Part shown: positions 7,380 through 44,582 of the stretch, in pieces
How the letters are laid out: every line of letters begins with the position of its first letter
How positions within the stretch are numbered: the stretch's first letter is position 1
Assembly (NCBI GenBank): GCA_043821585.1
Contig: JBDRCQ010000015.1
Location: forward strand, 2,909 to 66,908
From: an archaeon
Lineage (GTDB): Archaea; Nanobdellota; Nanobdellia; Pacearchaeales; GW2011-AR1
DNA: 64,000 nucleotides
Direction of reading: 5' to 3'
Notes under the pieces: model-generated
The model's input: only the letters and a program-made list of their open reading frames with translations
What the model was told of the DNA's origin: nothing
Databases searched by the model: none
Translations under genes and position numbers: made by a program

Positions 7380-7463
7380 AGTGAATTGCCATGCAATTCT
7401 CATTCGAACACGAGCAAGTCCGCATTCGAGTGGCGTCCACTGCCGGTTGATAAAAACGTACAT

Positions 7464-7545
7464 GCCGATGTTGGGCAGTGGTAGCCCGCTTGCTTGGAGA
7501 GCAAGTTTCTTCACCGATATGCAGGTTCGATTCCTGCCATCGGCG
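7464..7545 (+). tRNA. atypical tRNA-like gene. The anticodon loop reads GGA (Ser), but the D-arm is class I and the 15-nt variable region is unstructured.
   Basis: Acceptor GCCGATG/CATCGGC plus G73. D-arm GGGC-AGTGGTA-GCCC. Anticodon stem CTTGC/GCAAG with loop TTGGAGA. T-arm GCAGG-TTCGATT-CCTGC. Whether it is an intact tRNA cannot be judged by eye. Confidence 0.5.
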
Positions 7546-7624
7546 TTTAGAATCTCACCTGGAATACTCACTTCGTTCGCATACGACTCGCTTGTGGCTG
7601 TCGGATACTCACTTCGTTCGCATA

Positions 7625-7652: not shown

Positions 7653-8328
7653 TTATTCGGGCCGGGTTCTTAGCATTTTGTATGTTTGTTCATGCTGTGC
7701 TATTTTGGTTTCAAGATCCGCGATAATCTGCTGATGAATTGTCTCTGCGTCTTGTGTGCCATCGACAACCATTATTCTACTAGGTTCTTTTGCTGCTATT
7801 TCTAAGAATCCTTGTCTTACTGCTTGGTGGAATTCATAGTTTTTTCTTTCCATTCTGTCTGGCTCTCTTCCCACCCTCCCCATACCTATTTCTACCGGAA
7901 CATCCATAAAATAAGATCTGTTTGGGACAAGCTCTTCTGTCGCGAGACGCCCGCATTGTTCAACATATTCTGAAGAGACTCTTCCTGCTACCCCTTTAAG
8001 CTCTTGTCGCATCAACAAATCTATCTAGAAAGACGAGTCTGCCTTTAGCTAAGGCTGGTTTGATTACTTCATGTACTAACTGGGCCCTTGAACTCATGAA
8101 TAAGAAAACCTCAGTTAGGGGGGCCATTTCTTCTGCATCAAAGTGCAATAAAAGGTGCCTTATATGGTCTCCAATTTTTGTCCCACCTGGATCTCTTGCT
8201 CTTATCACTTCATAGCCTTTTTCTCTAAAATGCCTCTCTGCTAGATTTAGTTGAGTGCCTTTGCCGCTGCCATCAGGGCCGTCAAAATGCGCAAAAAACC
8301 CCTTATATTCACCTCTATCTTTAGCCAT
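7653..8328 (-). pseudogene. tmk: thymidylate kinase, frameshifted (two overlapping ORFs)
   Basis: ORF 8328-7996 holds the N-terminal half (DGPDGSGKGTQ P-loop, RDPGGT, DRFVDATRA). ORF 8018-7653 holds the C-terminal half in another frame (..KGVAGRVSSEYVEQ.., lid region). A single-base deletion in GCTTAAAGGGG would restore DATRAYKGVAG. Confidence 0.7.
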
Positions 8329-8444
8329 TAATTTGATTTAACTGATGAAGTTATAAAGAATTGCTGTTGTGGGAAATATGGTTTTGTTGAATATATGCTT
8401 TTTTTCATATACATCCTTATATAGAAAATATTTTTCATTTAGGT

Positions 8445-10226
8445 ATGTCTAAAGGGAGAGTGATGAAGAATTTTGATGCGGGGGAGGAAGAACTGCTTAG
8501 GGGGTTCTTGTTTACTAATCCTGGTGGGGATGATGGCTTTGTTTATCCGCAGGAGTTGGTTGTAACGGAAGAGCTAGCGCCTTTGATGTCTGCTTATTCT
8601 AGGTCACATGTTCCTTTTCAGGAAAGGGTTTTGACCTATCTTGATAGGCATAAAGATGAGCAGACCAGAGCCATGTTGCCTTTGATTCCGCAATTAATGG
8701 ACATAACCAGGAATCCTGATGGGACTTTGAGGTTGACGGCTAAGACTGCAATATTCAATAGGCAATGGCCTCAGAGACATGGGCATGATTCGATTAAGGA
8801 AGAGGTTCCTCTTGTTGGACACTCGGAGAGGATATCTGACATAACTGGCAAGAGGATTACGGGACATCCGTTAAATCATCCGCAGGTTAAGTCTACGAGG
8901 TATTTGCATTTTGGGAGGGGGGATAATGTGGAGGACGAAGATTTGAGGGCGTTGGATCAAGGAGGCAGATTTTTAGAGTATCAGGATTGGATGAATCAGA
9001 GATATGTTGATATGACTGGGAGGCTTAGAGATGTTGTTTTCGATCATTCGGATACGGCAAGGGTTGTGGAGTTTTTGAGGAGGCCTGAGAACGTTGAGGC
9101 AGAAGTTGAAGCACAGATGGATGAAATGAAGGCTGTTAGGGATGGTTATGAACCGAGTGAAGGGGATCGAGACAGGGCGAGGGAGAGGGTTTTGAAGGGT
9201 TTGGAAGATGAAGGGGTTAGGAAGGCGGTGGGAAATTTTGTTTTGGATTCTTCAAGAATTTATTTGACGGCGGCTACTAAAACTTCCTTGGGTTTTGTTG
9301 CAGATGCTAGGACTTTGGAGAGCATTCTTACAGGGATGATTTCTTCTCAACGTTCAGAAGATGTTAGGAGGGGTCGGGCCTTGTGGGAACAAGCTCAGAA
9401 AGTGGCGCCTGTTTTGTTGGGTGAGAAAAGTCATGTTAGAGTTGATGCATGGAGGCAAAAGAATGAAACAGAACTTAGAGAGTTTCTGCAGGAAAGATTT
9501 GCGGGAGTTGAACCTCTTGAAGGGAAGCCGAGGGTTAGGGTTTGGGATCCTACAACTTTTAAGATGTATGATGATCGATTTAATGCGGCGATGGTTGCTT
9601 TTCCTTATTTGGATCTTAGTGTGGGCCAGATTGCTGATGAGATTTCTGCGGGAGATGCTGTGGAAATTTTAGAAAGGGCTCATAAAAATAGAGGACAATA
9701 CGATTTGGTTCATCCGGCGATCGCACATGGAGGGCTAATGTCTGAGTTTGTTATGGGCTATCATGGTTATAGGGATTTGTTTAGACATAGGAGGGGTTCG
9801 AGATCGGTGCAACTTTTGACCACGCGATTGGGTTTTGAGGTTCCTAAAATCTTTGAGACGTTTGGGATGGGTGATGAAGTTAGGGCTGATATGGAAAAGG
9901 CTGCGGAGATTTATGAACTTGCTAGGGAGCAGGATCCACATGTTGCGGAGAAGGTTGTGCCTTTTGGAGCTTTATGTAGATCGTTGCATTCTTGGCAGCC
10001 TGATCAGATGGCTTATGTGGCAAGGCTGAGGACGAATGCGGCCAGAGGGAATATTAGTTATGTTAACGTTGCTAGGGACATGATTGGACAAGTTGCTGAC
10101 TTGATGCCTGAAACTGCAAGATACTTTAGGGCTGATACGCAGGAGTACCCGGCGCATTTGTGGAAGAGGGGATATGAGTGGTATGATTCTGAAAGAAGAG
10201 GTAGAGATGAGAGTAAAGATAGTTAA
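8445..10226 (+). CDS. large hypothetical protein with a divergent ThyX (Thy1)-like C-terminal domain
   Basis: The C-terminal ~200 aa reads AHGGLMSEFVMGYHGYRDLFRHRRGSRSVQ ... VVPFGALCRSLHSWQPDQMAYVARLRTNAARGNISYVNVARDMIGQVADLMPE. This parallels the ThyX segment GHFSVLEH..RHRxxS..., ..VLP...R......N.R.W.HFI.MR...A..EIR.LA. The N-terminal ~390 aa is unrecognised. The locus is GC-richer than its flanks. Confidence 0.5.
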   Translation: MSKGRVMKNFDAGEEELLRGFLFTNPGGDDGFVYPQELVVTEELAPLMSAYSRSHVPFQERVLTYLDRHKDEQTRAMLPLIPQLMDITRNPDGTLRLTAKTAIFNRQWPQRHGHDSIKEEVPLVGHSERISDITGKRITGHPLNHPQVKSTRYLHFGRGDNVEDEDLRALDQGGRFLEYQDWMNQRYVDMTGRLRDVVFDHSDTARVVEFLRRPENVEAEVEAQMDEMKAVRDGYEPSEGDRDRARERVLKGLEDEGVRKAVGNFVLDSSRIYLTAATKTSLGFVADARTLESILTGMISSQRSEDVRRGRALWEQAQKVAPVLLGEKSHVRVDAWRQKNETELREFLQERFAGVEPLEGKPRVRVWDPTTFKMYDDRFNAAMVAFPYLDLSVGQIADEISAGDAVEILERAHKNRGQYDLVHPAIAHGGLMSEFVMGYHGYRDLFRHRRGSRSVQLLTTRLGFEVPKIFETFGMGDEVRADMEKAAEIYELAREQDPHVAEKVVPFGALCRSLHSWQPDQMAYVARLRTNAARGNISYVNVARDMIGQVADLMPETARYFRADTQEYPAHLWKRGYEWYDSERRGRDESKDS

Positions 10227-10875
10227 GAGGATTCCATTTGAGGATTTGAGGAAAATGATAGCAGAGGTTCCTTTGATGAAACCTGCTGCTGACGGTTCTC
10301 AGATTCATCCTTATAGGAATGCAAAGATTGGTTTGAGGCAGTTTAGTGCAGACCATGTCAACCCCCCTACTTTTTATCTGATTAGGCGAAATCTAGAAAT
10401 TCAGAGAGCTTTAAGGAGTCATCTGATGGCCGATCATGGAATTGATCCGTTGCGTTTGAGTGGCGCTTTGGAGATAAGGAACGAGAATGGGGAAATCTGG
10501 ACATTGACTCCTCCGATAGTTGAGTTTACTCCGAGGCACGTATTTTATGTTCCGCAACCTGGAGAATTGGATCATGGTCAAAGGAGGACGAGGATTTATG
10601 TTCCTTTGATTTGTGATGGGGCGCATAGAGTTGGCGTGGCGAGAGAAGCTGGAGGAGATTTTATTGGAGTTTCCATTGAGGGAGCGGACGACGCTTATCC
10701 TTATTACGCACACCCTAACGGGTGGGGCGACGTTAAAATTGTGGACGAGGTTCCGGGAACTATGGACGAAAAGAAAATGTATCTTCTAGCAGATTCTTAT
10801 GCGCTGTATCGGGACTTTAGCAGGATCGGGTGTGGTAAACCGAGACATGTTGGGGAGGGTGATAAGGGTGGCTAA
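10174..10875 (+). CDS. ParB/Srx-like nuclease-domain protein (start may be ATG 10207)
   Basis: LICDGAHRVGVAREAGGDFIGV resembles the ParB/sulfiredoxin signature (DGxHRxxAA..xG). Overlaps the upstream gene's end and the downstream gene's start. Confidence 0.45.
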   Translation: MSGMILKEEVEMRVKIVKRIPFEDLRKMIAEVPLMKPAADGSQIHPYRNAKIGLRQFSADHVNPPTFYLIRRNLEIQRALRSHLMADHGIDPLRLSGALEIRNENGEIWTLTPPIVEFTPRHVFYVPQPGELDHGQRRTRIYVPLICDGAHRVGVAREAGGDFIGVSIEGADDAYPYYAHPNGWGDVKIVDEVPGTMDEKKMYLLADSYALYRDFSRIGCGKPRHVGEGDKGG

Positions 10876-11482
10876 GCTTATTCATTTGGTTGGGTCTTCT
10901 GGGACTGGCAAGGGGAGTGTTCATAAGTATCTTGTTGGATATTTGAGGGGACAAGGGGGGAGTGTTGTAGAATTGGTTGAGCCGCCGGAACCTTTTCACC
11001 AGTTCATTAAAAATTATCGTTTGAGGCCAGATAAGGATGCGCTTGTTGAAGCGGCGATGTTTGCGACTGCGAGATTGTGGCTTTATGAAACTCAGGTTAT
11101 GCCAAGACTTGAGGATCCTAATTTGGTTTTTTTGTCAGATAGGGGTTTGTTGGATTCTTTTGTCTATCAGGGAGTTCTTGGAGGTGTTGGTGTTGAAACT
11201 GTTCAAAGATTGAATCAGCATGTGCCTTTGCCTGATTTGGCTATCGGACTGATTGTTGATGGGGTAGAAGGGAATAGGAGGGTTTTGGAGAGGAGGGGGG
11301 CGACTGGTGAGGCGTTAAGTGCTAACGAAACTGCTGCGGGGATTGCTAGAGTTTCTAATGCTTATGCGGGAATAGGGTTCACTTTTCCGGACATGAATTA
11401 TCGGACAATTGATACAACTTCGATGACTCTTGATGAAGTGAAGGATGTTGCTCGGAGTTACGTTGATGAGGTGTTGGCATGA
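10847..11482 (+). CDS. thymidylate-kinase-like dNMP kinase (second, divergent Tmk paralog; start 10847 ATG or 10868 GTG)
   Basis: P-loop LVGSSGTGKGSV and FLSDRGLLDSFVYQG (the DRY..S..YQG motif of the Tmk family). Confidence 0.7.
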   Translation: MLGRVIRVAKLIHLVGSSGTGKGSVHKYLVGYLRGQGGSVVELVEPPEPFHQFIKNYRLRPDKDALVEAAMFATARLWLYETQVMPRLEDPNLVFLSDRGLLDSFVYQGVLGGVGVETVQRLNQHVPLPDLAIGLIVDGVEGNRRVLERRGATGEALSANETAAGIARVSNAYAGIGFTFPDMNYRTIDTTSMTLDEVKDVARSYVDEVLA

Positions 11483-12123
11483 GTGGGGGGCTTGTTGATG
11501 CTGTCGGTTTTGATCTTGATGGTACGCTTTATACATTAAATGACGGGATTAATGATAGGATAAGGCAGCATGCCTGTCAAACTGCTGCAGGTATTTTGTC
11601 TAGACCTTATGAATGGGTTAGGGCTGAATTTGAAAGGCATTTTGCTGAGACTGGAAGTGGAAGAATTTCTTTGGAACAAATGGGAATTGATAATGGCAGG
11701 GAAATTGTGCAGGTTGCGTTGGAGGAGGCAGATATTGGCCCTTTATTGAATAGAGATGGCGCTTTGGCGGGGATGCTTGGTAGGCTTGGGGAGAGATTTA
11801 ATCTTTATTTGATTACTAGCAGTCCAAGGGGGAGCGCGGAATCGAAGCTTGCACATTTAGGGGTTAATTTGGATGTTTTTGATCCTCGTATTTATGGAGA
11901 AAGCCCTTTGTCTAGAAGGGATGGGTCTGCTTTTAGACATGTAGCTACAACCTATGGCATTGCTCTGCCGAGGATGATGTTTGTGGGTGATCGAGAGAAA
12001 GTTGATATCTTTCCTGCGCAGAGTCTGGGGTTAAAGACTGCGATGGTTAATGGGATGTCGGAACGTGCAGATTATAACCTGGGAAGTATTTATGAGTTAG
12101 AGGGTGTTTTACTCGGGACGTGA
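11479..12123 (+). CDS. HAD-superfamily hydrolase/phosphatase
   Basis: GFDLDGTLY (motif I), LITSSP, GDREKVDI (motif IV). ATGA start overlap with the upstream kinase. Confidence 0.75.
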   Translation: MSGGLVDAVGFDLDGTLYTLNDGINDRIRQHACQTAAGILSRPYEWVRAEFERHFAETGSGRISLEQMGIDNGREIVQVALEEADIGPLLNRDGALAGMLGRLGERFNLYLITSSPRGSAESKLAHLGVNLDVFDPRIYGESPLSRRDGSAFRHVATTYGIALPRMMFVGDREKVDIFPAQSLGLKTAMVNGMSERADYNLGSIYELEGVLLGT

Positions 12124-12729
12124 TTTGACATAGTCTTTTATAAACGGCCAACTGATTTGTGTCCAGCTTTCTATGGTGTTTTCCGGATTGCTGAAGGTTT
12201 TTTCTATTTCGTCTACTAATAAGAATTCTCCGTGAGCCATGTCCTCTGCAGGCTTGATGTCTTCGGTTGTTTCTGCTAAGGCAACGACTCCGAAATGGAC
12301 CTTTCCAACTTCTTCTGAGTCGTCGTTTATGAAGCCAATGAATTTGGGTGAAGGATAATTTTCCATGATAACTTCTTCTTTCATTTCGCGCATCATTGCT
12401 GCAGCTATTGGGTCTTTTGTATGTTCTTCAGTGTCGCGGTCGATGTGTCCACCAACGCCGCCCGAGAATTTATTGTAGAGCCTGCCTTCGTTTCCAGTTT
12501 TTGCTCTTTTGTAGATGAATACTTTTTTTGTTTTTGGGTTAATTATCCAGACGTAGGGAATTATTTGTTGGAACTCTTTGTTGTTTTCTAATTCATCTGT
12601 TCTATCTTGGTATTCTAGTTTTTCTAAAATCGTGGGGATGAAGTCATTTTCTTTTATTGGGCAAAAGCCTTGAAATGTTTTGTCTTTGAATAGCTCCTCT
12701 CTTTTTACGCATAGGATGTCTCGTGACAT
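12109..12729 (-). CDS. Nudix hydrolase
   Basis: GGVGGHIDRDTEEHTKDPIAAAMMREMKEEV fits the Nudix box GX5EX7REUXEEXGU. The 3' end overlaps the HAD gene by 15 nt (convergent). Confidence 0.75.
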   Translation of the reverse strand: MSRDILCVKREELFKDKTFQGFCPIKENDFIPTILEKLEYQDRTDELENNKEFQQIIPYVWIINPKTKKVFIYKRAKTGNEGRLYNKFSGGVGGHIDRDTEEHTKDPIAAAMMREMKEEVIMENYPSPKFIGFINDDSEEVGKVHFGVVALAETTEDIKPAEDMAHGEFLLVDEIEKTFSNPENTIESWTQISWPFIKDYVKSRPE

Positions 12730-12763: not shown

Positions 12764-13087
12764 TTGTTCTTGAGGTATTCTTGTGGAAAAATATTTAAGG
12801 GTTTGGTTTTAGTTTGGGGCATGTGTGGGAAATATCTTCGAAGAGCGGCTCTTTTTTTTGTTTATTCAGCTATTTCTTTAAATGCAGGTAATTGTGCTTA
12901 TAGGTGCACTGATGATTATTTGCAGGCAACGGAGTTTGGCGAGGAGCGATCAATGGATAACGGTCTTTTTAGGGCTGTCGGGGCGGTTAATGGTCTTTTG
13001 GTTGGGACAGGAATTTGGGCTACTTGGCCACTTTATCGATTGATTAGAAAAGGAGAGTTAAAAGAAGATAGACAAAGGATTGATTAA
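12764..13087 (+). CDS. hypothetical protein
   Basis: ORF only, with a C-terminal hydrophobic segment. Weak support. Confidence 0.25.
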   Translation: MFLRYSCGKIFKGLVLVWGMCGKYLRRAALFFVYSAISLNAGNCAYRCTDDYLQATEFGEERSMDNGLFRAVGAVNGLLVGTGIWATWPLYRLIRKGELKEDRQRID

Positions 13088-13392
13088 TCCTTCATTTCGA
13101 TTTTGATTTGCACGCTTCGTGGGATTTGAAGTTTCATAATTGGGTGGAGAATTCGGTCTTCGGCGGGGATGTCGATGATTCGGCGGTGTACGCGCATTTC
13201 AAACCTGTCAAAGGTTGCTGTGCCTGCACCGCAAGGGGATTTTCGTGTAGCTACCTTCAGTTTTCGAGTAGGTAATGGGATTGGGCCTCGCATCACGACG
13301 CCGGCTCTTTGAGTAATTTCGCGGATCGATTCAATTACCTGATTGATCGGCGCGATTTCGATACTGTTCAATTTGATTCTAACCTTTGCCAT
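13084..13392 (-). CDS. rps10: 30S ribosomal protein S10 (uS10)
   Basis: MAKVRIKLNSIEIAPINQVIESIREITQRAGVVMRGPIPLPTRKLKVATRKSPCG is the uS10 signature. Confidence 0.9.
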   Translation of the reverse strand: MAKVRIKLNSIEIAPINQVIESIREITQRAGVVMRGPIPLPTRKLKVATRKSPCGAGTATFDRFEMRVHRRIIDIPAEDRILHPIMKLQIPRSVQIKIEMKD

Positions 13393-44487: not shown

Positions 44488-44503
44488 ATATTTGAGAATG
44501 TGT

Positions 44504-44574
44504 GGGTGCGTAGTATAATGGTAGAATATCTGCCTCCAGAGCAGAGGACGGGGGTTCGATTCCCTCCGCGCCCA
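44504..44574 (+). tRNA. tRNA-Trp (anticodon CCA)
   Basis: Acceptor GGGTGCG/CGCGCCC (G-U at 4-69) plus A73. Anticodon arm TCTGC-CTCCAGA-GCAGA. T-arm GGGGG-TTCGATT-CCCTC. D-stem is weak (GTAT/GAAT). Confidence 0.65.
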
Positions 44575-44582
44575 TTCATTAC

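Follow-up and report, generated by a model that had tools for sequence, protein, structure and literature searches.

The synthesis of thymidylate belongs to textbook biochemistry and is targeted by drugs, the flavin-dependent thymidylate synthase ThyX in particular. In the standard Dcd/Dut – ThyX – Tmk route, pyrimidine deoxynucleoside triphosphates or monophosphates (dNTPs, dNMPs) are turned into deoxyuridine monophosphate (dUMP), dUMP into thymidine monophosphate (dTMP) and dTMP into the diphosphate (dTDP). Here we describe a cassette of four genes for which the same flow is predicted, found in a stretch of 64,000 nucleotides (henceforth the window; positions 2,909 to 66,908 of contig JBDRCQ010000015.1, GenBank assembly GCA_043821585.1) from an archaeon of the Pacearchaeales (Nanobdellota). 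The genes encode a tandem ThyX homolog (ThyXL), a protein of the ParB/sulfiredoxin (Srx) fold assigned to the Pfam family Parb-CE (ParB-CE), a paralog of the thymidylate kinase Tmk and a phosphatase of the haloacid dehalogenase (HAD) superfamily. Unlike in the standard route, the supply of dUMP would fall here to the unrelated ParB-CE and HAD proteins (perhaps also to a neighbouring Nudix hydrolase), and the kinase is a divergent paralog. The reading that we favour, with about even confidence, is that of a vertically inherited, housekeeping deoxythymidylate-supply operon of DPANN archaea of the Woesearchaeota and Pacearchaeota type (dUMP→dTMP→dTDP), in which ParB-CE and HAD supply or balance the pyrimidine mononucleotides.

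Two other described systems share parts with this locus. The phage pathway to 5-hydroxymethyl-deoxyuridine (5-hmdU) comprises a thymidylate-synthase homolog that acts as a hydroxymethylase, a dTTPase, a dTMPase, a dCMP deaminase and a dNMP kinase (PMC8989533). This pathway and that of phage T4 to hydroxymethyl-deoxycytidine (hm-dC) are functional parallels to the cassette, with a synthase-family enzyme, a dNMP kinase, nucleotide phosphohydrolases (putative ones in our case) and a dCMP deaminase, the last in the bacterial versions described below; but they are viral and use ThyA-family hydroxymethylases, whereas the cassette has a ThyX, is cellular and is conserved. In the anti-phage system PUA-Calcineurin-CE-HAD it was shown experimentally that the HAD enzyme converts dNTP to the diphosphate (dNDP) and the CE domain dNDP to dNMP (PMC12871103). 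There HAD is obligatorily paired with CE, and in our loci the HAD gene adjoins that of ParB-CE and is in some cases fused to it. The effector fold differs (calcineurin-like there, ParB/Srx here), the cassette has no PUA sensor, and our pair, whose activity is predicted, sits in a thymidylate synthase and kinase operon with housekeeping neighbours.

A tandem ThyX with a split active-site motif

The first gene (8445..10226, + strand) encodes a protein of 593 amino acids (aa), 100% identical to the archaeal database entry ABH864_04765, which is labelled 'hypothetical protein'. An initial annotation of the window, made from the letters of the DNA, had placed a ThyX fold in its C-terminal ~200 aa and had expected a Thy1 match. 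Such a match was found above the cut-off (PF02511, 30.7 bits against 24.8), but at aa 104–323; the C-terminal part is also a Thy1 domain, by way of a distant homolog, and the protein as a whole is a tandem ThyX. When its AlphaFold2 (AF2) model (predicted local distance difference test, pLDDT, 90.7) was compared with the PDB using Foldseek, the best 50 matches were all ThyX, with TM-scores of 0.46–0.59 (target-normalised). Sequence and profile searches of PDB sequences gave marginal ThyX matches only (E 0.03–0.8).

In the AF2 model both halves of the protein run through a strand, a helix ending in a GHP or an RHR segment, a short strand and a later strand-helix-helix unit. The C-domain alone (~aa 375–593) had no match in Pfam and none among PDB sequences, profile search included, and aligning the N-half with the C-half by hhalign gave nothing significant (probability 0.4%). 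The bridge is provided by the ortholog at locus L010, from a Woesearchaeota metagenome-assembled genome (MAG), whose C-domain scores 40.4 bits to Thy1 and aligns end to end with that of ThyXL, with the same invariant residues. It is only by transitivity, through this ortholog, that the C-domain of ThyXL can be classed as Thy1, and the tandem nature of the protein follows from the repeat of secondary structure in the model, the logic of the motifs and the L010 bridge taken together.

The N-domain (~aa 1–335, with long helical inserts at aa ~165–275) carries the elements H112-G-H-x-S116 and S150-T-R-Y153, and the C-domain carries Y442-R-D-x-x-R447-H-R449. Across an alignment of 18 ThyXL homologs, H112-G-H-x-S116-x-x-E119, S150-T-R-Y153 and D287-x-R289 are invariant in the N-domain, as are Y442-R-D-x-x-R447-x-R449 (including R443), Q456, T460 and R529 in the C-domain. 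A profile alignment to the ThyX of PBCV-1 (2cfa) places 'HGHnSIkE' of ThyXL over 'HKHWSIFE' and, gap-free, 'tGHPlnrpqvkSTRY' over 'RHRSFHFQEFSQRY'. The N-domain has thus lost both arginines of the RHR element (G140-H-P instead) and kept SxRY at its canonical spacing, while the C-domain has kept R-x-x-x-R-H-R and has a degenerate SxRY (T459-T-R/x-L). The contiguous motif RHRxxSxxxxSxRY is present in no single domain, its halves being split between the two, and the same split is repeated in the distant L010 ortholog. The suggestion that the spacing of SxRY had been lost, and with it the usual substrate, does not survive this comparison, given that the SxRY loop is invariant and canonically spaced in the N-domain and the RHR helix invariant in the C-domain.

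In the ThyX of T. maritima, the helix with R74, R78 and R80 enters the active site of the neighbouring subunit, whose S88-G-R90 loop binds dUMP. Seen against this arrangement between subunits, the complementary losses of motifs in ThyXL fit a subfunctionalised tandem ThyX, probably with one live composite site per chain. The protein shares with canonical ThyX (T. maritima TM0449, M. tuberculosis ThyX, PBCV-1 A674R) the fold, a Thy1 match above the gathering score and three invariant features, namely the RHR helix, the HxS element and the loop with SxRY. It differs from them in its ~590 aa with two Thy1 domains per chain, in the split motif and in the helical inserts of the N-domain, and only half of its potential active sites could be complete. 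Tandem ThyX proteins as such are not restricted to this cassette. The chlamydial ThyX (~530 aa) is another one, and a third type, P0065 (541 aa), is also a double Thy1 with the invariant residues in common (26% identity over 93% of the length), although its gene (locus L037) has no ParB-CE, Tmk or HAD neighbours. As a natural case of a subfunctionalised tandem ThyX with split motifs, ThyXL may shed light on the architecture of the composite active site of ThyX.

ParB-CE, the kinase and the phosphatase

The second gene (10207..10875, +) encodes ParB-CE, 222 aa long, which matches PF24392 (Parb-CE) with 49 bits, above the cut-off, and has the ParB/Srx fold. The initial annotation was right about the ParB-type domain and fold but had expected PF02195, which is absent from the Pfam matches (E <= 0.1). 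No helix-turn-helix (HTH) match was obtained either, and because both are absent the role of a canonical DNA-binding ParB was rejected. Compared with canonical ParB, a CTP-dependent DNA clamp marked by an HTH domain, a C-terminal dimerisation domain and a GERRxR box, the protein is distinct, with 222 aa and a DGxHR motif instead. This motif (D137-G-x-H140-R141) is invariant and, together with a set of aromatic residues, stays so from DPANN through the actinobacterial members. Among solved structures, ParB-CE is closest in fold to SerK (5x0b) and SbnI (5ujd), both small-molecule kinases, and to sulfiredoxin, from all of which it differs in its low identity (10–15%) and in additional N- and C-terminal elements; sequence and profile searches against PDB entries returned no match.

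The family is small, with 839 clusters at 50% identity among 1.84 billion proteins, and its members are nearly all ~200 aa long; an informative name was found in none of the 10 clusters sampled. The family name presumably originates from Nicastro et al. 2023, whose abstract is said to predict nucleotide degradation for specific ParB versions. 'CE' means 'conflict effector', as defined for 'Calcineurin-CE' by the same laboratory (PMC12871103). A 2025 survey of ParB-CTPases has no mention of thymidylate or ParB-CE, and our literature search returned nothing relevant on ThyX in DPANN, on ThyX with ParB and thymidylate kinase, on DUF4346 or on ParB-CE.

The last two cassette genes, and the Nudix gene that follows them, were classified much as first annotated, Pfam and NCBIfam bearing out all three assignments. 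The Tmk-like P-loop (d)NMP kinase (10868..11482, +) matches PF02223 with 54.7 bits and has the GSSGTGKGS P-loop and, for the DR(Y/F)..YQG motif of the family, SDRGLLDSFVYQG. Its score to TIGR00041 (65.7 bits) is under the equivalog cut-off of 83.25, compared with 88.6 bits for the N-terminal fragment alone of the broken canonical tmk next to the cassette, and the two kinases are 28% identical. The HAD phosphatase (11479..12123, +; 214 aa) matches PF00702 (41.9 bits, 1.9e-10) and has its DLDGT motif, with the DxD nucleophile, in 'FDLDGTLY' at aa 11–18. In NCBIfam the HAD subfamily TIGR02253 matches best. Models of pyrimidine 5'-nucleotidases match weakly, and no model of a specific nucleotidase reaches its cut-off.

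The four genes are translationally coupled, and the tight junctions of the initial annotation are confirmed. The ATG of ParB-CE at 10207, backed by homologs (the NCBI model has 222 aa), overlaps the end of ThyXL (stop at 10226) by 20 nt; the kinase starts with a GTG at 10868, preceded by GGAGGG, and overlaps the ParB-CE stop at 10875; and the kinase and HAD genes share an ATGA (11479–11482). The open reading frames (ORFs) themselves were all found where first placed (8445–10226, 10174–10875, 10799–11482 and 11479–12123 on the + strand, 12109–12729 on the – strand), the longest ORFs of ParB-CE and the kinase beginning further upstream than the genes, at 10174 and 10799. A TATA-like TTATATA at 8417–8423, ~20–28 nt 5' of the ThyXL ATG, is a putative promoter element.

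Gene order and fusions in DPANN archaea

In each of three look-ups with ThyXL homologs the order was ThyXL – ParB-CE – Tmk – HAD, with Tmk and HAD fused in one of them. Scanning the ParB-CE alignment against one genome per species gave 24 loci, 22 from MAGs of the Woesearchaeota or Pacearchaeota type and one each from MAGs of Saccharibacteria and of Patulibacter. Among 24 non-redundant loci of the DPANN type, the ThyXL gene immediately precedes that of ParB-CE, or is no more than ~1 kb away from it, in 22, the contigs of the remaining two being truncated, and in most DPANN-type loci Tmk and HAD come after ParB-CE. The synteny recurs widely in relatives, and the proposal that the ThyX homolog, the ParB/Srx-fold protein, the Tmk-like kinase and the HAD form one functional unit is supported. 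The gene of ribosomal protein S10 (rpS10; 13084..13392, –, in the window) is the downstream neighbour of the cassette here, and at five related DPANN loci (L001, L003, L005, L007 and L010), whose proteins are 45–60% identical, it directly follows the cassette.

All four components are also linked through gene fusions (Tmk::ThyX, Tmk::HAD and ParB-CE::HAD). At L010 (2992-5286) a single ORF of 764 aa combines a Tmk of the canonical type (118 bits) with a tandem ThyX, itself divergent, and this cassette has no separate Tmk-like gene. At least 10 loci have Tmk::HAD fusions, with a kinase part that scores 68–82 bits to the Tmk family and HAD domains that match PNK3P (3'-phosphatase) weakly. A PNKP-like polynucleotide kinase/phosphatase was considered for these fusions and rejected, the kinase being firmly of the Tmk family and the PNK3P matches weak. 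At L036 the order is ThyXL, ParB-CE, a ParB-CE-like::HAD fusion and Tmk.

A few occurrences are on contigs assigned outside the archaea. The contig of L004, labelled as a Patescibacteria group bacterium, has a cassette of the DPANN type (ThyXL 55% identical, ParB-CE, Tmk::HAD), and the same is true of P0064 (Uhrbacteria). The presence of the cassette on contigs assigned to the candidate phyla radiation reflects either a transfer across domains, from one lineage of episymbionts to another, or faulty binning. In the Saccharibacteria MAG (L027:5926-6579) ParB-CE stands alone, with 100 bits to PF24392 and no thymidylate synthase, HAD or Tmk within ~6 kb upstream or ~0.6 kb downstream (the contig end), and the linkage of ParB-CE to a thymidylate synthase is therefore not universal.

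The initial annotation suspected a horizontal, possibly viral, origin of the locus and suggested looking for the synteny in viruses as well as in other genomes. Only the second half of that expectation held. No relatives of ThyXL or ParB-CE were found among 2.9 million viral contigs, BFVD gave only generic ParB folds (E > 0.01), and the PHROGs matches were generic thymidylate-kinase and HAD ones, Nudix excepted. The locus had also been described as GC-richer than its flanks. This is marginally so, the cassette genes having a GC of 0.445–0.463 against an ORF mean of 0.416 (standard deviation 0.031), about 1–1.5 standard deviations above and matched by other genes of the window, but GC at third codon positions (GC3) is average (0.36–0.42 against a window mean of 0.395, standard deviation 0.049). 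The absence of viral relatives, the normal composition and the conserved chromosomal context, with rpS10 as a neighbour in the five DPANN loci, argue for a vertically inherited, chromosomal cassette and make viral import unlikely.

Bacterial counterparts of ParB-CE

Bacterial ParB-CE genes, which encode the same invariant residues, are not beside ThyX. They adjoin instead a gene for a ~510-aa protein made of a ~200-aa N-terminal region of no known family, a ThyA-like domain of the methanogen type (TIGR03283, 88 bits, under the cut-off) and, at its C-terminus, an MtrA-like domain that binds pterin (PF14251, DUF4346). This ThyA-like::PterinBD protein was found beside ParB-CE in L028, L029, L030, L031, L033, L034 and L035 (Solirubrobacterales-like and unassigned contigs), usually with HAD between or beside the two. 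Given the ThyX context in DPANN and the ThyA-like context in bacteria, the constant core consists of ParB-CE, HAD and an enzyme resembling thymidylate synthase, for which either of two unrelated folds is used, and the exchange of ThyX for a ThyA-like partner is a non-orthologous displacement.

Other genes of nucleotide metabolism accompany this core. The operon at L033 reads dCMP deaminase – HAD – ParB-CE – ThyA-like::PterinBD, and that at L032 dCMP deaminase – HAD – ParB-CE::DUF6273. The last gene of L032 (3630-4817, P0117) encodes a fusion of 395 aa, DUF6273 being a domain without known function. In L029, L034 and L035 the module has as neighbours a canonical ThyA-DHFR-HIT cluster and a dCMP-deaminase-like gene of greater length, and several bacterial loci also carry a cytidylyltransferase-like gene beside it.

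Three bacterial loci (L030:7669-10497, L031:7640-10372 and L035:6820-9659) have, downstream of ParB-CE, a second large protein (660+285 or 910–942 aa) with a weak or clear ParB-CE domain, followed by a convergent minus-strand gene for an AAA_16/WD40 STAND-like protein of ~1370–1395 aa. The arrangement resembles a conflict system.

A predicted route of thymidylate supply

The scheme that we favour starts from what the loci directly establish (homologies, folds, the distribution of motifs, gene order, fusions and the link of ParB-CE and HAD, across domains of life, to two unrelated families of thymidylate synthase) and extends it to substrates, to the direction of the ParB-CE reaction and to an oligomeric arrangement, all of which are put forward conditionally. 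To each composite active site the N-domain would contribute its SxRY loop, its HGHxS element and the arginines that bind the base, and the C-domain its R-x-x-x-R-H-R helix. A dimer of ThyXL would thus stand in for the canonical tetramer and have two live sites. The enzyme would methylate dUMP to dTMP, which the Tmk paralog would convert to dTDP. ParB-CE, as a nucleotide-binding phosphotransferase or phosphohydrolase, and HAD may act as a pair on pyrimidine (deoxy)nucleotides, cutting dCTP, dUTP or dNDP to the monophosphate that feeds the synthase and so substituting for Dcd and Dut; less likely, they would phosphorylate salvaged deoxyuridine or thymidine.

That the product of the synthase would be ordinary dTMP is suggested best by one fusion, that of a canonical-type Tmk with the tandem ThyX at L010. 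A role of ParB-CE and HAD in supplying dCMP and dUMP from dCTP and dUTP is attractive for three reasons, in that a dCMP deaminase recurs in the operons of bacteria, a ParB-CE::HAD fusion occurs and HAD with Calcineurin-CE sets a precedent. Its kinase-like structural neighbours would also allow ParB-CE to be a nucleoside or nucleotide kinase.

Several observations weigh against this scheme. Structurally ParB-CE comes closest to kinases rather than to hydrolases, and its Pfam name labels it as a predicted nucleotide-targeting conflict effector. A canonical tmk adjoins the cassette, so that a divergent second kinase scoring below the equivalog level could mean a different substrate. In bacteria, a canonical ThyA-DHFR adjoins several of the modules, whose own synthase is then not the sole one and possibly not a plain dTMP synthase, and some loci have the STAND/WD40 protein and the second large ParB-CE-containing protein. 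Finally, the list of parts closely parallels that of the phage 5-hmdU pathway.

The linkage of ParB-CE, through gene order and fusions, to two unrelated synthase families in archaea and bacteria points to a step that would have been missed so far, whether in supplying dUMP, in balancing pools or in channelling nucleotides. The cassette also offers a possible housekeeping ancestor of the nucleotide-depleting immune modules made of a conflict effector and HAD, and bears on how ultra-small, salvage-dependent DPANN archaea acquire dTTP.

Alternative readings

Among the alternatives, a pre-replicative pathway to a modified pyrimidine, close to what the initial annotation had proposed, survives best, although we hold it to be unlikely. 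The ThyX- or ThyA-like enzyme would make a 5-substituted pyrimidine dNMP (e.g. 5-hydroxymethyl-dUMP), the Tmk paralog would phosphorylate it, and ParB-CE and HAD would deplete the canonical competitor as (d)NTPase and dNMPase, letting the modified base enter DNA. Such a pathway would make sense of the phage-like list of parts, of a divergent Tmk paralog that coexists with a canonical tmk, of bacterial modules alongside canonical ThyA-DHFR and of the nucleotide-targeting lineage of the ParB-CE annotation. To our knowledge, however, no ThyX-family hydroxymethylase has been described. The hydroxymethylase of the phage pathway is of the ThyA family (PMC8989533). Further points that speak for thymidylate rather than a modified base are the canonical-type Tmk fused to the tandem ThyX at L010, the motif set contacting uracil and dUMP that ThyXL has kept, and the Asn in the 'WLQNVYG' segment of the ThyA-like partner, which appears to be of the uracil-specific type. 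Neither in nor near the cassette were enzymes of modification at the DNA level seen, and, measured against thymidine hypermodification and 5-hmdU systems, the cassette has a ThyX-family synthase, no 5-hmdU DNA kinase, no aGPT-Pplase and no viral relatives.

A bolder form of the same idea, which we consider rather improbable, is that ParB-CE is an unrecognised deoxypyrimidine enzyme recruited independently by ThyX- and ThyA-type synthases, in a module that makes and channels a non-canonical 5-substituted pyrimidine (e.g. 5-hydroxymethyl-dU). If true, ThyXL would be the first ThyX-family maker of such a pyrimidine, and the genomic DNA of DPANN archaea and some actinobacteria would itself contain a base modified before replication.

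DPANN archaea rely on scavenged nucleotides, and a salvage variant can be built on this dependence: HAD would be a nucleotidase (3'- or 5'-phosphatase) acting on scavenged nucleotides, ParB-CE a SerK-like kinase of deoxyuridine or thymidine, and ThyX and Tmk would finish the route to dTDP. The best structural neighbours of ParB-CE (the kinases SerK and SbnI and the phosphotransferase sulfiredoxin) and the weak PNK3P matches of the HAD domains fused to Tmk agree with it. But the binding of a nucleoside is purely conjectural, and a kinase beside a phosphatase for the same compound would make a futile cycle, so this variant seems doubtful to us.

Still less probable is an anti-virus system in which ParB-CE and HAD would collapse the dNTP pools upon infection, the thymidylate enzymes being accessory or conferring immunity. 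The idea has behind it the family name, the precedent for pairing HAD with CE (PMC12871103) and the STAND/WD40 and large ParB-CE-containing proteins beside some bacterial modules. PADLOC, however, gave no match for ThyXL, ParB-CE, HAD or Nudix and a single weak one for the Tmk-like kinase (PDC-M51B, E 6e-5). The DPANN cassette is a constant chromosomal feature by rpS10, has neither a sensor nor a STAND protein as partner and shows translational coupling to ThyX and Tmk, and its immediate surroundings (~5–16 kb of the window) have no sign of mobile elements. A defence role for the archaeal cassette is accordingly unlikely.

A recent viral cassette compensating for a broken host tmk has in its favour the frameshifted neighbour and the slight excess of GC, but it is already contradicted by synteny, since the five related DPANN loci have the same cassette and chromosomal context with proteins as divergent as stated above, and with a normal GC3, no viral homologs in the contigs and BFVD, and a single tmk lesion that may be an assembly error, we regard it as highly improbable.

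Neighbouring genes and other features of the window

The canonical thymidylate kinase gene tmk (7653..8328, –) is transcribed divergently from the cassette, from which it is separated by an AT-rich spacer of 116 bp (8329..8444). As first annotated, it is frameshifted. Two ORFs on the – strand, 7996-8328 (110 aa) and 7653-8018 (121 aa), match the N- and C-terminal halves of PF02223/TIGR00041, and the break is a single frameshift at 7996–7999, where the sequence reads 'gct t aaa ggg', within the DRF..AY(K/Q)G motif. The offset of the frames is consistent with 2 nt missing from the Tyr codon or with 1 nt inserted. After this one repair the gene encodes an otherwise intact protein of 225 aa, with the DRFVDATRAYKG motif intact, and the lesion may be genuine or an assembly error, the sequence alone fitting either. 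The idea that the cassette replaces a decaying tmk finds no support, the cassette being old and conserved whatever the state of the neighbouring tmk, and a canonical-type Tmk being itself fused to the tandem ThyX in some genomes (L010).

On the other side of the cassette, the Nudix hydrolase gene of the TM1382 type (12109..12729, –) is convergent with the HAD gene, the two ends overlapping by 15 nt. It matches PF00293 (22.9 bits), PDB 3e57 (TM1382, 4e-20) and, strongly, the unannotated phage family phrog_8902 (3e-31). Nudix homologs are near the cassette in at least four other DPANN loci (L005, L010, L013 and L020), once between ThyX and ParB-CE, and are thus recurrent rather than constant; Nudix may be a fifth, facultative member of the cassette, e.g. 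as a dNTP pyrophosphatase.

When the stretch was divided into 64 1-kb windows, 61 of them had a positive GC skew, (G-C)/(G+C), with a maximum of 0.48. The cumulative skew climbs near-monotonically to 14.9, also through stretches of minus-strand genes, with no turning point in 64 kb, so that G is in strong excess over C along the whole strand. A tRNA-Ser (GGA) gene is located at 7463–7546 (+), ~100 nt past the 3' end of the broken tmk, and the second tRNA of the window, Trp (CCA), at 44503–44575.

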